From: an uncultured Thermococci archaeon
GTDB lineage: Archaea > Methanobacteriota_B > Thermococci > Methanofastidiosales > B48-G16
DNA length: 64,000 nucleotides
Direction: 5' to 3'
NCBI GenBank assembly: GCA_964595645.1
Contig: CAZQQT010000007.1
Location: 1-64,000 of the forward strand
Made by a program: the position numbers and the translations under genes. Positions 21,217-62,324 of this stretch are shown here, piece after piece. Each line of letters opens with the position of its first letter. The stretch's first letter is position 1. Below the pieces are notes generated by a model. It saw nothing but the letters and a program-made list of their open reading frames with translations. It searched no databases and was not told the origin of the DNA.

Positions 21217-22518
21217 TCAATCACCGATGTACACGTGTTGGCCGTTTCTCCTCACAAATATGTCCTCCTCTATTCTGTACCCTTCCTCTTCCGCCATCTC
21301 TGCCCAAGCTACCAGCATGGTGTACTGACCGTGGGCGGGAACAACGTTCTCTGGATTCACAATGCGCAAAAGTTCCCTGAGATCCTCTTTAGAGGCGTGG
21401 CCTGAAACGTGGACATTCTTCATCATCCGTACACCCTGCATCTTCAGCTTTGTTTCAAGCTTGTATCTGTTTGCCCGGTTAATTGGGTTGGGAATTGTCG
21501 ATGTTGAAAATAAGACAGTATCCTCCTTGTCAAGCCGGAGAGACGTGTCTTTGTCCGCAATCCGAGAGAGCATAGCCTCCGGTTCTCCCTGGGATCCCGT
21601 GACGATTACAAGGTACTTCTCCTTGTTCTTATTTACTTTTTTGAGATTTCTCTGAACAGGATCCCATCTTCTCACCATTTTTGGCTGGTTGTCCACAATA
21701 CCGAGCTCCAGTGCCTTACCGTAGTACTTACACAGCGATCGTCCGATGAGAATCGGCGTTCTTCCCATTTTCTCCGCCGCTTCCAACAGCGTCTTCAACC
21801 GTGCGATATGGGACGCGAAGCTCGTGGCAACGATTCCATCCTTCCTGTCGTACTCATCGAGCAGGAAGTCCTGGAGCATGATCTTCGCCACCTTCTCCGA
21901 CGGCGTCTTTGTGCCTTCTGGTGCCCGGGTAGAATCGGCGATCATTACCTTGGGGTTCAGGTTACTTAATCGTTTGAAGTCCGGTTTCTCCCCTATTGTT
22001 GGATGCATATCCAGTTTAAAATCGCTGGTGTAGAGTATTGTTCCTTCAGGGGAATGTAATGCTGTAAAATTTGATTCAGGGATGGAATGTGTGGAATTGA
22101 TAAACTCGATCTCGTATTCACCCATTTTGATCCCTTTGTCAATAGTAACGAGCTCATTTTCTCGTTTGGATACAGGCTCCTCACTGATCAGTGAAGATAC
22201 AAGACTCATGGTATACTTCGTCCCGACAATCGGACATCGGTAGTTGTGCGCCATCTTCGGTACCGCACCAATATGATCTAAATGGCCATGGGAAAGAATA
22301 ATTGCCTTTACATTTTTTCCCTTTAGCGCCCGATCGTTTGGAATGGCACCGAGCTTTCGTAGACCCTGAGGACTCATGTTCTGCAGGTTCGTGTCCTCAT
22401 GGATCATTACTCTGTCAAGCTTGATACCCATATCAAAGATAAATACGTCATTATCAACCTCAACAGCAGTCATATTATTTCCTATTTCTTCGTATCCTCC
22501 AATCGTATAAATTTTCAT
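21217..22518 (-). CDS. rnj: Ribonuclease J (archaeal)
   Basis: GGYEEIG, SHGHLDH, HSIPE, HVSGHA, PAHG; adjacent to fni as is usual in Euryarchaeota. Confidence 0.92.
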   Translation of the reverse strand: MKIYTIGGYEEIGNNMTAVEVDNDVFIFDMGIKLDRVMIHEDTNLQNMSPQGLRKLGAIPNDRALKGKNVKAIILSHGHLDHIGAVPKMAHNYRCPIVGTKYTMSLVSSLISEEPVSKRENELVTIDKGIKMGEYEIEFINSTHSIPESNFTALHSPEGTILYTSDFKLDMHPTIGEKPDFKRLSNLNPKVMIADSTRAPEGTKTPSEKVAKIMLQDFLLDEYDRKDGIVATSFASHIARLKTLLEAAEKMGRTPILIGRSLCKYYGKALELGIVDNQPKMVRRWDPVQRNLKKVNKNKEKYLVIVTGSQGEPEAMLSRIADKDTSLRLDKEDTVLFSTSTIPNPINRANRYKLETKLKMQGVRMMKNVHVSGHASKEDLRELLRIVNPENVVPAHGQYTMLVAWAEMAEEEGYRIEEDIFVRRNGQHVYIGD

Positions 22519-53340: not shown

Positions 53341-53750
53341 TCACTCAAAATACTCGTAAATTTTTTCAACGAACTCCCTCACATCGTGAAGATCCTCTGC
53401 ACGTATTTCCATCAATCGCTCTTCATCAACTCTGTTATACCGGTGAACGAGAAAATTCCTAAATTTTGCCATTTCTGCCATTCGTGTGGAGAGATCGGCG
53501 GGAATCACACTGTATTTTGCCAGAGTGCTGAACATCTCAGCATAGCTAGAAGGTCGTTCAAACCCTTCTGTTGCAATAATATGACTTGCAATATCTATAA
53601 ACGCCTCAGTAACCTCTAACAAGCTATGTTTCACTGCTTGAATCTCTTCAAAGGACGCTGTATGGGGATCCATCTCTTTAGTTTCTAAGTAACGAATATT
53701 TTTCTCGATGATCTCTATTTTTCCTTGAATCGTCCTTTAGAGACTTTCAT
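53341..53750 (-). pseudogene. hepT: HepT/DUF86 (HEPN) toxin with a frameshift near its 5' end
   Basis: FRNFLVHRY motif; the ATG at 53750 overlapping the mntA stop reaches TAG after 11 codons and is 77 nt from the body ATG at 53673. Confidence 0.75.
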
Positions 53751-54151
53751 GCTGTGATTCTCCTTTTTACATTCTTATCATGCTCGCGGAGAAACTGTTT
53801 AAAATCGAGATAGGCGACCAGACTCCTCGCTTCAAAATCCTCCCTGATGCGCTCATCCGCGATATATACATGGTGGGCATCGGTGAGCACCTCGTAAATG
53901 AATCGCGGATCCCGTCCATTGAGCACGTGCAGATCGATATCCCTTCCAATCTCTTTTTCTATGATAAGAGAAAGTCGGGCGATCTCTCTAATAGTATACT
54001 CCTCACCCTCTGTGAGGACGAGCCCGATATCCACATCACTCTCTTCATGCTCTCTAGATCGAGCAAAGGGACTGAAAAGGTACGCAACCGCTATTTTCTT
54101 TTCTCTCCCCAATATCTTTTGAATTGCATCCCTCTGCTCTTCATTCAGCAT
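53747..54151 (-). CDS. mntA: MntA minimal nucleotidyltransferase antitoxin with degenerate GS motif
   Basis: AYLFSPFARS...SDVDIG (consensus FGS.ARG..SD.D), IDLHVLN. Confidence 0.75.
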   Translation of the reverse strand: MLNEEQRDAIQKILGREKKIAVAYLFSPFARSREHEESDVDIGLVLTEGEEYTIREIARLSLIIEKEIGRDIDLHVLNGRDPRFIYEVLTDAHHVYIADERIREDFEARSLVAYLDFKQFLREHDKNVKRRITA

Positions 54152-54371
54152 AAATATGTATAGTAATATAAGAATAAAAAGGTTTTGAACTGCACAGCCA
54201 GCTCGCTGGAAAAAAAGGATCATCGTGATATCAGATACGCCACCAAAATTTCTAGTGTATTTTCTCATCGAGTGTGATCTGAGAACTCTCTCGTGTTTGT
54301 CATGTAGTTCTCACTCTCGTTAAATTATTTCCTACAAAAAAATAATAAACAGAAGGTGACAAAGATATCGT

Positions 54372-54667
54372 ATGAGTAAAGAGCTGGAGAGGATCCGACG
54401 TTGTATTCATAAAAAAGAAGAAGAAATCAGAGAAAAATACAAAGCAGAGGCAGTGGGGGTGTTTGGGTCCTATGCGAGAGGTGAGCAAAAAAAGGATAGT
54501 GATTTGGATGTTCTCGTACGGTTTCATGAGGGGGAACACTATTTGATTTTGTCGGCCTTGCAAACTTTCTTGAAGAAGAATTGGACATGAACGTAGATGT
54601 CGTCTCGGAAAGGACCGTAAGGAAGGAGGTGAAAAAGAAGATACTCGCTGAGGTGACTCCACTGTGA
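54372..54667 (+). pseudogene. MNT nucleotidyltransferase antitoxin, frameshifted; partner HEPN gene deleted
   Basis: FGSYARGEQ..SDLD; frameshift at the G-run near 54530, after which TLFDFVGLANFLEEEL..VDVV continues; overlapping GTG-K-R-D stub stops after 6 codons. Confidence 0.8.
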
Positions 54668-54689
54668 AGAGAGATCTCATATAACGCGT

Positions 54690-56081
54690 CTAAAACAGCT
54701 CCGGATGTTCCGTGTGAATAGGGATCAGTTTATTTGGATTAATTGTCTCTACCATCTCCCGGATCTCTGGACCGGAAGCGTGTCCTGAGGCATGGGCGGC
54801 GCACTCTGGAATCCCGAAGTGATCCAACCAATGGTGTTTCCGGTCCTCATCGAGCTCCATTTCTTCCGAGAACGGCTCGCAGCTCGATTTTATCCAGAGC
54901 GCATTTGTCGGCTTAATATCCACCAGCTGGTTGATCTCCCAGAAACTCGTGGAAACCACGTAGCGTTCTGGATGTTCCCTCAACGTAGCGCAGGTGACGG
55001 TGTTCTCTCGGGTGAGAAACTCACGTTCCCATGTCCGGTAGTCCCGTTCTACCTGGTAGTCCGGCACATCCTCCCGCTCAATCAATCCCCAGCTCTTTTT
55101 GGGAATGAGTATCTGAGTGTCATCGACATGGAACGGCGAGAGATCGCCGAGCTTCTCGAGGAGGTACGCGAGCTTCATATCCACAACGAACTCCCGCTCA
55201 TTCTCTTTCGTCGCGTCGTAAATGGTCTGCACTCTGTCGATGTCCTTTTTCGGATGCTCGACGAAGACGAGACCATCTGTTCGTGTGAGGTGGTGGATCA
55301 TCTCATCACGTACCTTGGTTTCACTATCCTGCCGTATCTCATTGATCCGTGTGCCCTCGCAGAGGAAAATGTCCGGTGCTGCGGCTTGTGCACGCTCAAC
55401 GAACGACTCAGTTTTCTCGCCGTGGTGGCCATGGAAACGGAGATCGCCCGAATACACAACAGTTTCGTCGTCGGAGTAAATGATATAGCCGCAGGCACCA
55501 GGGAGCGAGTGATCCACAGGAACCATCTCCACCTCCAGCGATCCGATCCGTACAGGAGTATTCTGGTCCATCACGTGGTACGTCCGCTGCGTTACGTACT
55601 CGCTCTTGCGCCGTGAGACTCTGCTAAGATCGCCCCGTCTGTTCTCGTAGAAGGTGAAGGTTTCGCAGTGGGTAAAGAAGTCCGCGAATGAGCTACTGCC
55701 CGTCTCTTCAATGTATTGAAGCAGGATCTTCGTAGGCTCCGTGCAGTAGATGGGGATATCCTTCCGCAGGAAGTGGATGTACGCGGCGTGATCCATATGC
55801 GCGTGGCTCAAGAACACTGCATCCACCCTCGTGTCCGCGGGATCACGTCCCATGTGGGTGAGATAGTCCCGTCGGTAAATACCGGGAATATCGGGGAGCA
55901 GATCGAACTCGAAGAAATCCCGGAGAGAGGCACACTTCCGCGGCTGCAGAAACTCGGAGAAGTACCAACCTGTCTGCGAGAAGCTCATCCCGAAGTCGAG
56001 AAGTATCCGTGTATCGTTATGAGAGAGGAGGATCTTGTTGCCGCCGATCTCGTCTTGTCCGCCGAAGATCTCGATCTTCAT
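54690..56081 (-). CDS. Metallo-beta-lactamase/beta-CASP nuclease (RNase J-like paralog)
   Basis: GG..EIGGN, DFG, SHAHMDH, DHS, SGD, EGT, HASGH, PIH. Confidence 0.88.
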   Translation of the reverse strand: MKIEIFGGQDEIGGNKILLSHNDTRILLDFGMSFSQTGWYFSEFLQPRKCASLRDFFEFDLLPDIPGIYRRDYLTHMGRDPADTRVDAVFLSHAHMDHAAYIHFLRKDIPIYCTEPTKILLQYIEETGSSSFADFFTHCETFTFYENRRGDLSRVSRRKSEYVTQRTYHVMDQNTPVRIGSLEVEMVPVDHSLPGACGYIIYSDDETVVYSGDLRFHGHHGEKTESFVERAQAAAPDIFLCEGTRINEIRQDSETKVRDEMIHHLTRTDGLVFVEHPKKDIDRVQTIYDATKENEREFVVDMKLAYLLEKLGDLSPFHVDDTQILIPKKSWGLIEREDVPDYQVERDYRTWEREFLTRENTVTCATLREHPERYVVSTSFWEINQLVDIKPTNALWIKSSCEPFSEEMELDEDRKHHWLDHFGIPECAAHASGHASGPEIREMVETINPNKLIPIHTEHPELF

Positions 56082-56818
56082 GATGTTCCTCCACGGTAGA
56101 TCTCACCGACGCGGGTGAGTGCGAGTTTCGCCCGTTTGTCCTCACGTTCCTTCGTGATGAGACCCATCCTCTCAAGTTTCTCCAGACGGTACTGCACACT
56201 GGAACGCTGGATATCATCATCCATCGATTCTACGAGCTCTTTTATCGAGCTCACACCCTGTTTCTCGTGGAGAACATGGATGATATCCCGGTCGAGCTTG
56301 GTTATTTCTTCAATAGGGAACACGGGGATAGACTCGCAGGTCATTGTGCCAATAGCGCCTCCTTTATTCATGAACTCATCTTTCAAATCGCCCTTCGCCG
56401 AGTCGATAATCTTCGGGACGAGGTACTCCTCCGGCTTGGAGTAGAGGATCGCGATCTCGCCGTGATCCCGGAGGAAGAACACGGCGGACATCATAGCAAC
56501 TAACGCGAGTTTTGGTGCTGAGGAGATGTTGACATAGACCTTCCTCCCGTTCTCCAGCTCCTGTCTGATAATCCTCAACGTCGTGAGAAAAACGTTGTCA
56601 AAATCGTAAATATCGACGGTTTCCCCCTCTATTTCCACTGGAAACTCTTTCAGTTTCTGGAGGAAATGATCCGCCAGTGTCGTTGAATGTGTGTAGGTCT
56701 CTCCACTGTGTCTGAGCACGATCACCTTCTCGGCGGGATATCCTTCGATAATGGGCTTCACGATCCGCTCGTACTCGAACCCAGCAGCAACGATATGCAC
56801 TCCCTTTTTCTGTTCCAT
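56078..56818 (-). CDS. DUF6293 (CARF-like Rossmann) plus winged-helix regulator
   Basis: HIVAAGFEYERIV.P, VYVNISSAPK, YSKPEEY, C-terminal wHTH; ATG 56818 lies 22 nt from a TATA box; ATGA overlap with the nuclease. Confidence 0.8.
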   Translation of the reverse strand: MEQKKGVHIVAAGFEYERIVKPIIEGYPAEKVIVLRHSGETYTHSTTLADHFLQKLKEFPVEIEGETVDIYDFDNVFLTTLRIIRQELENGRKVYVNISSAPKLALVAMMSAVFFLRDHGEIAILYSKPEEYLVPKIIDSAKGDLKDEFMNKGGAIGTMTCESIPVFPIEEITKLDRDIIHVLHEKQGVSSIKELVESMDDDIQRSSVQYRLEKLERMGLITKEREDKRAKLALTRVGEIYRGGTS

Positions 56819-56839
56819 ACGTACATATTGGTACATGTG

Positions 56840-56869
56840 TTTATAAATTTTTTCATCACGTAACGAAAA
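56840..56869. repeat. 30-bp direct repeat copy 1 (TATA/BRE-containing; partner at 62264-62293)
   Basis: tttataaattttttcatcacgtaacgaaaa; 29/30 identical to copy 2. Confidence 0.85.
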
Positions 56870-56964
56870 GGTTGTATATAAAATGTCACTGTTGACATGG
56901 TGCCCCAGCAGTATTACTTTATTAAACATGGATGAGTAGGTGAACCATACAGGAGTTGAGGACC

Positions 56965-60561: not shown

Positions 60562-60779
60562 CGAGATCATCCCATTCAATTATCTCCATTTTTTCCGTGT
60601 ATGTTAAAATTTCTATATATCTACACGAGCACAGGTACAAAAACTAACATCTCTATGGTCTAGAAATGGAATATGTACACTAGTTTCTATATAAGATAAA
60701 TTTTTTAGTCACATGACGAAAAGAGTGTATATAAAGCTAAAAAAAACAGTAAGTACATTGCCCCTTCCAATTCTCCTCT

Positions 60780-62263: not shown

Positions 62264-62293
62264 TTTATAAATTTTTTCATCATGTAACGAAAA
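62264..62293. repeat. 30-bp direct repeat copy 2
   Basis: tttataaattttttcatcatgtaacgaaaa. Confidence 0.85.
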
Positions 62294-62324
62294 CTTTATA
62301 AATGAAGACTTGCATAATAAGTAT

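Follow-up and report, generated by a model that had tools for sequence, protein, structure and literature searches.

Nearly all that is understood about CARF sensors concerns the reception of cyclic oligoadenylates made by Cas10. In the ancillary effectors of type III CRISPR systems (Csm6, Can1/Can2 and Card1), the sensor is fused to a nuclease, and Cas10-made cyclic oligoadenylate activates the protein allosterically. In Csa3a and Csa3b of Sulfolobales (2WTE, 6W11, 6WXQ), an N-terminal CARF domain and, at the C-terminus, a winged helix-turn-helix (wHTH) domain share one chain, and the controlled genes form an adaptation cassette. HFX_2341 of Haloferax mediterranei combines a PF19810 N-domain with a wHTH; it is genomically unlinked to CRISPR, vertically inherited in haloarchaea and has been described as a broad repressor (PMC11434293). 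Here we describe an operon on a 64,000-nucleotide stretch of DNA (the window; start of contig CAZQQT010000007.1) in which a Csa3-like CARF regulator directly precedes an uncharacterised RNase J-like nuclease. The source genome (1.97 Mb, 99.96% complete) belongs to an archaeon of the class Thermococci near Methanofastidiosum, and the stretch is present in DNA sequencing runs from microbial-mat metagenomes; no RNA run was among those listed.

Like the type III effectors, this locus ties a CARF sensor functionally to a nuclease. Unlike them, it has a sensor with a DNA-binding domain and, as a separate protein, a nuclease of another fold, and Cas10 was not found in the genome. It also differs from the Csa3 loci, since the regulator has no adjacent cas genes and the gene under its predicted control encodes a beta-CASP nuclease instead of an adaptation cassette. 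An earlier note on this DNA had proposed a nuclease module that is controlled by a nucleotide signal, independent of CRISPR and a candidate for defence. Our own reading, to which we give a probability of about one half, is that a ligand-gated regulator of the Csa3 type controls an accessory RNase J-like nuclease, which would process nucleic-acid ends.

A CARF regulator with the architecture of Csa3

The regulator (56078-56818, minus strand) is a 246-aa open reading frame (ORF) encoding a CARF3 protein, that is, a Csa3-like CARF domain of the HFX_2341_N/DUF6293 type followed by a winged helix. Its N-domain matched the Pfam family HFX_2341_N (PF19810, formerly DUF6293) at 1.2e-27, several wHTH families of Pfam matched residues 172-232, and the CARF3 profile of PADLOC covered the full length at 4e-48. 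With 29 homologues as input, AlphaFold gave a model with a confidence (pLDDT) of 83. The top matches of this model in the PDB were the Csa3 structures 2WTE, 6WXQ (with bound cyclic tetra-adenylate, cA4) and 6W11, over the whole chain including the wHTH, followed by the CARF domains of Csm6, Can2 and ring nucleases. These results confirm that the N-domain is a true CARF fold within the architecture of Csa3, as the earlier note had proposed from a Rossmann-like N-domain, a wHTH and a NISSAPK loop resembling CARF motif II.

The resemblance to Csa3 extends to the ligand pocket. Typical CARF domains carry the signature [DN]-x-[ST]-x-x-x-[RK] after beta4, and the NISSAPK loop fits it as N-x-S-x-x-x-K, with N97 nearly invariant across the 29 sequences. 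In Csa3 the pocket motifs are a Gly-Phe that follows beta1 and a Gly-h-Arg loop behind beta4 (PMC8699464). The first is kept in the regulator as G13-F14 after beta1. The second has its counterpart in the loop N97-I-S-S-A-P-K103 after beta4, where Ala and Lys stand in place of the Gly and Arg of Csa3 (S-A-P-K versus G-h-R). The residues that do not vary within the regulator family cluster on the loops behind beta1, beta3, beta4 and beta5, where CARF domains have their ligand face. The regulator therefore likely has a conserved ligand pocket, and from the fold we infer that its CARF domain binds a ligand.

The regulator is not itself a member of either described family. It is about 12% identical to Csa3a and Csa3b and scored 26.1 bits on the model of Csa3 proper (TIGR01884), below the cut-off of 60.2. 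On the HFX_2341 equivalog model (NF051475) it scored 61 bits against a cut-off of 500 and is thus not an orthologue of HFX_2341.

Some of these features could also belong to a more ordinary protein. The CARF domain might bind no ligand and serve in dimerisation, so that the regulator would do no more than control itself, or would repress broadly as HFX_2341 does, and would stand by chance before a spare RNA-turnover paralogue. The global effects of HFX_2341, for which no ligand is known (PMC11434293), speak for such a protein, as do the changes from Gly to Ala and from Arg to Lys in motif 2 of the subfamily and the several regulator orthologues that precede unrelated genes. Against this, no part of the family is more conserved than the pocket-loop residues, and a functional link is suggested by the repeated pairing with nucleases that share only 33% identity with one another. 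We consider a ligand-free regulator unlikely.

An accessory nuclease related to RNase J

The second gene (54690-56081, minus strand) is a 463-aa ORF encoding an RNase J-like beta-CASP metallo-beta-lactamase (MBL) nuclease of an uncharacterised accessory family, with Pfam matches to Lactamase_B_2 and RMMBL. All MBL motifs 1-4 and beta-CASP motifs A-C are present. Residues D29, H93, H95, D97, H98, H191, D213, E242, H430 and H456 are invariant in the alignment of the family across archaea and bacteria, so that the metal motifs are retained as the earlier note had stated. That note had also set the nuclease apart from a housekeeping RNase J at 21 kb, and the comparison bears this out. The best family model for the nuclease is that of RNase J (TIGR00649), which it matched with 83.5 bits, far short of the cut-off of 400, whereas the aRNase J encoded at 21217-22518 (minus strand) scored 443 bits. 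The two proteins are 22% identical.

Despite this distance, the nuclease shares with RNase J and the archaeal aRNase J (7WNT, 3BK1, 5HAA) the MBL and beta-CASP fold, as a structure comparison showed, together with all seven motifs and H-x-SGH. The C-terminal motifs H-x-SGHAS and P-x-H are common to the nuclease and the aRNase J of the same genome. In RNase J, H-x-SGH forms part of the 5'-phosphate pocket. The nearest solved relative is nevertheless EF2904 of Enterococcus faecalis (2AZ4), which came first by profile (2e-35) and fold (template modelling score of about 0.70-0.76), with the RNase J structures ranking after it in both searches. EF2904 is about 22% identical to the nuclease and, as a structural-genomics protein of unknown function, adds no mechanism.

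An insert at residues about 33-75 (about 55857-55985, minus strand), with the consensus FSEFLQPRKC, is specific to the nuclease family and missing from RNase J. Its residues F41, E43, P47, R48 and K49 are invariant, and it was modelled at low confidence. The insert may be a loop that contacts the substrate or a partner.

The MBL fold also includes phosphodiesterases of cyclic nucleotides. Hence the enzyme might instead degrade the oligonucleotide or cyclic nucleotide that the CARF domain senses, as a negative feedback, or feed nucleotide salvage together with a phosphatase; a haloacid dehalogenase (HAD) phosphatase adjoins the nuclease in four loci, and there was a weak match to NF041851 (E 0.0098). 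That match is at the level that any MBL protein would reach by chance, however. The full beta-CASP domain and the 5'-phosphate motif of the RNase J type point to polymer ends as the substrate, and most members of the nuclease family have no CARF partner. We regard a role in clearing or salvaging the signal as very unlikely.

In contrast to RNase J, the nuclease has a patchy distribution. It was present in 19 of 61 relatives, and its tight form in seven of 101 sampled Methanosarcinales. Homologues of about 60% identity occur in Methanosarcinales, anaerobic methanotrophic archaea (ANME), Nanoarchaeota, Bathyarchaeota, Nitrososphaerales, Lokiarchaeota, TM6 and Flavobacteriaceae, and the phyla, including the bacteria, are mixed in the nuclease tree. 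This sporadic spread at about 60% identity across archaeal phyla and some bacteria suggests horizontal transfer. The nuclease thus appears to be a transferred accessory gene and not a core, vertically inherited RNA-processing enzyme, which is what RNase J is in Euryarchaeota (PMC3553952). Phung et al. 2013 (PMC3553952) left unstudied a set of non-monophyletic archaeal beta-CASP groups with probable transfers to and from bacteria. The nuclease family, whose distribution is of this kind, probably belongs to these groups.

A more distant branch was seen in another family of the same class, probably Thermococcales (L017-L021), where five of 27 genomes encode homologues of about 35% identity and 519-547 aa. 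These have an extra insert between residues about 132 and 172 of our query.

The genes around the nuclease homologues point to DNA repair and replication. A Rad50/SbcC-like ATPase with a zinc hook lies directly downstream in nine Dehalococcoidia loci (within L066-L075, L083 and L087), and the nuclease stands between a Mre11-like phosphoesterase and an NAD-dependent ligase (LigA) in four loci from unclassified bacteria (L098, L099, L102, L103). The large subunit of PolD is encoded downstream in six archaeal loci, and an HD-OB protein adjoins the nuclease in five. When 105 further neighbours of close homologues were scanned together against Pfam, no other family dominated; there were isolated cases of UvrD and SF1 helicases, AGOG, PIN and a methylase, along with housekeeping genes. 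The Rad50, Mre11-like and LigA neighbours suggest a role of the bacterial members in DNA-end processing, and the context as a whole loosely favours the processing of nucleic-acid ends over defence.

The same evidence bears on the defence role proposed in the earlier note, which is not the best-supported interpretation. In such an anti-virus module, independent of CRISPR, an infection-derived or host-made nucleotide signal would reach the CARF domain, and the induced nuclease would degrade nucleic acids of the invader or the host. Points in favour are the CARF fold of the sensor, its match to CARF3 profiles, which PADLOC includes in its candidate defence genes, the spread of the nuclease, which suggests horizontal transfer, the toxin-antitoxin genes that flank the pair here, and the PIN, DNA methylase or RhuM genes in a few homologous loci. 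Yet the nuclease matched none of the families of PADLOC-DB 2.0, and its recurrent neighbours (Rad50, Mre11-like, LigA, PolD, HAD) are not defence genes. Moreover, no Cas10 was found, although CD-NTases and other synthases were not searched for, the conserved divergent partner in the own family is a membrane J-domain gene, and a transcriptional output would be slow for abortive infection. Taken together, this makes an anti-virus module a doubtful explanation.

Recurrence of the pair and its relation to CRISPR

Both genes are intact and form a two-gene operon, as the earlier note had read from the sequence. They overlap by an ATGA at 56078-56081 (minus strand), in which the TGA of the regulator meets the ATG of the nuclease. 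The identical 4-nt overlap is found in the orthologous loci L027 and L028. A GGAGGA (56087-56092, minus strand) lies 5 nt before the ATG of the nuclease. The TATA box TTTATAAA is located at 56847-56840, and 22 nt separate its end from the ATG of the regulator. Given this short distance, the common mRNA is probably leaderless. A longer regulator ORF, reaching to 57034, was rejected: the orthologues begin at the aligned Met (56818) and the extension contains the TATA box.

The pair is conserved in its own family and recurs beyond it. The regulator lies directly upstream of the nuclease, with the same overlap, in three genomes of the own family (G001-G003), and directly upstream in six of seven informative metagenomic loci of that family. 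We then clustered the neighbours of 80 genomic nuclease loci, counting as paired those with a CARF3-wHTH gene within 3 kb. Eleven were paired, in varying orientations, and these belong to the own family, Methanosarcina, two Methanolobus, another Methanosarcinaceae, Nanoarchaeota, Woesearchaeota, Micrarchaeota and Thaumarchaeota. The pattern of pairing requires at least seven changes on the nuclease tree. Five of the pair-carrying genomes were searched for HFX_2341_N genes and hold only one to three each, which makes chance adjacency very unlikely.

The pairing is also visible from the side of the regulator. Orthologues of 40-48% identity are found in Thermoplasmata from soda-lake sediments, where a beta-CASP nuclease follows the regulator after 7-30 nt in 11 of about 20 informative loci. 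These nucleases are 33% identical to the one described here. With many loci unpaired, the link between regulator and nuclease is recurrent but facultative.

Several other candidates did not hold as partners or examples. In the sister genus Methanofastidiosum, a DUF488 gene lies 6 nt after a nuclease of 59% identity with no regulator adjoining (L010:2907-3368, L014:1022-1483); it was seen nowhere but in these two, the Methanofastidiosum loci that were read, and was rejected as a partner. The same applies to a DEAD/DUF5814 helicase downstream of the pair in L028, which is limited to one lineage and whose copy in our source genome lies on contig C10. MM_0565 of M. mazei, a CRISPR-adjacent CARF protein, was rejected as an example of pairing. 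In L107 (1499-2254 and downstream), the regulator and a J-domain gene are kept and the nuclease is replaced by a 226-aa ORF without a Pfam match.

We next looked at the relation of the pair to CRISPR. No cas gene was present among the ORFs examined at 50-60 kb around the pair, and the 99.96% complete source genome yielded no Csm1/Cmr2 (Cas10). A cas1 gene lies on another contig (C5:23797-24627), and the genome likely carries a CRISPR-Cas system without type III signalling. Cas10 was likewise not found in any of six pair-carrying genomes, comprising the source genome, G001-G003 and the carriers from Thaumarchaeota and Nanoarchaeota (G135 and G136). Any CARF ligand in these genomes would therefore not be made by Cas10. 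The independence from CRISPR claimed in the earlier note thus stands. Its further claim of control by a nucleotide signal is suggested by the fold of the sensor, but the search, which was for Cas10 in the six genomes and left aside other synthases such as CD-NTases, found no signal-making enzyme.

A full-text literature search, which did not cover the CARF census of 2020 (PMC7498327), found no published description of this pairing. In genomes that yielded no Cas10, a Csa3-type sensor has repeatedly been coupled to a single uncharacterised nuclease family. The pair offers a testable entry both to what CARF domains sense outside CRISPR and to the role of a large, unstudied family of RNase J-like, EF2904-like nucleases. 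The nuclease family has members in Methanosarcina and Methanolobus, and Methanosarcina species are open to genetic manipulation, so that these questions can be addressed at the bench.

The bidirectional promoter and the genes around it

Between the regulator and the genes upstream lies a 43-nt bidirectional promoter module (56840-56882). It consists of a TATA box (56840-56847), an A-rich transcription factor B recognition element (BRE), the central palindrome TTTCGTTACGTGATG and a second TATA box facing the opposite way. The same module has been kept upstream of orthologous regulator genes in two genera, with the palindrome TTACGTNA kept between the back-to-back TATA boxes and located at about -45 in all loci of the own family. 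In the window the candidate operator reads TTACGTGA (56856-56863), one mismatch from the palindrome TTACGTAA. Allowing up to one mismatch, 17 sites like TTACGTAA were present in 19 upstream regions of regulators from two phyla. Shuffled regions contained 3.9 +/- 2.0 such sites, and none of 1000 shuffles reached 17. The position resembles that of the CAPPa palindrome, which lies upstream of the BRE and was proposed as the site of Csa3a (PMC8699464).

The earlier note had pointed to a different operator, a GTACAT-N4-GTACAT direct repeat. The repeat is indeed present at 56821-56836, but its proposed role was rejected. With up to two mismatches there were five matches in the window, where 3.4 are expected, which is no excess over chance, and the repeat was absent from the orthologous promoters even though the recognition helix of the regulator (RSSxQYRLEKL) is identical among orthologues apart from V, I or L at one position. 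We infer that the palindrome is the better candidate operator.

These elements can be put together as follows. The operon would be leaderless and translationally coupled, and its first product would be a dimeric transcription factor of the Csa3 type, whose CARF pocket probably takes up a small nucleotide-like molecule from a source other than Cas10. The regulator would bind the TTACGTNA palindrome just upstream of the bidirectional promoter's BRE and TATA box and could so control its own synthesis and that of the nuclease. The second product would be an accessory, 5'-end-dependent exo/endonuclease of the RNase J kind, which most likely processes the ends of RNA or single-stranded DNA under stress or damage. 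The signal probably switches the nuclease on.

Several observations weigh against this picture of a ligand-gated regulator and an end-processing nuclease. The one characterised relative, HFX_2341, behaves as a broad repressor for which no ligand was demonstrated (PMC11434293). Of the 80 nuclease loci, about 70 lack a CARF3 neighbour, and unrelated genes follow the regulator in about nine of the 20 Thermoplasmata loci. The choice between RNA and DNA as the substrate is a guess based on the neighbours in other lineages, whose nucleases share only 38-46% identity with the one here. Finally, the enrichment of the palindrome comes from related sequences, which makes it supportive but not proof.

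Wherever another locus of the family includes the upstream flank, the operon is divergent from a gene for a small membrane protein whose C-terminal domain is of the J (DnaJ) type (L027:5655-6086 and L028:363-863, both minus strand, and L107-L114). In the source genome this gene (C7:74214-74693, on the same contig) lies about 17 kb from the operon. The genome has four copies of the promoter module, all on this contig: 56840-56882, 60693-60735, 62264-62306 and a fourth, at C7:74107, behind which the J-domain gene is located (the genome search placed them at 56849, 60702, 62273 and 74107). The copies bracket toxin-antitoxin and other cargo blocks, as if insertions had duplicated the ancestral promoter. 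Since the operon and the distant J-domain gene each have a module copy, an insertion of about 17 kb, which includes the toxin-antitoxin block, seems to have separated the two halves of the ancestral promoter.

A wider and rather speculative proposal can also be made. The pair could belong to an orphan CARF pathway across archaeal phyla, in which an endogenous nucleotide-like messenger of DNA damage or infection, not made by Cas10, would act through the Csa3-type factor to induce the end-processing nuclease and, in this lineage, also the membrane J-domain protein with which it has the bidirectional promoter in common. We put this forward tentatively and think it improbable.

Toxin-antitoxin genes also lie on the other side of the operon. 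The earlier note had listed three damaged MNT/HEPN genes beside the pair, which is only partly right. The plus-strand MNT gene (nucleotidyltransferase, antitoxin-type; about 54372-54680), which is convergent with the nuclease, has a clear frameshift near ...VRFHEG, with its C-terminal half continuing in another frame. The HepT ORF (53341-53673, minus strand) begins about 20 positions into the HepT profile of Pfam, and its N-terminal residues are encoded upstream in frame, behind a stop codon. The MNT gene at 53747-54268 reads through intact.

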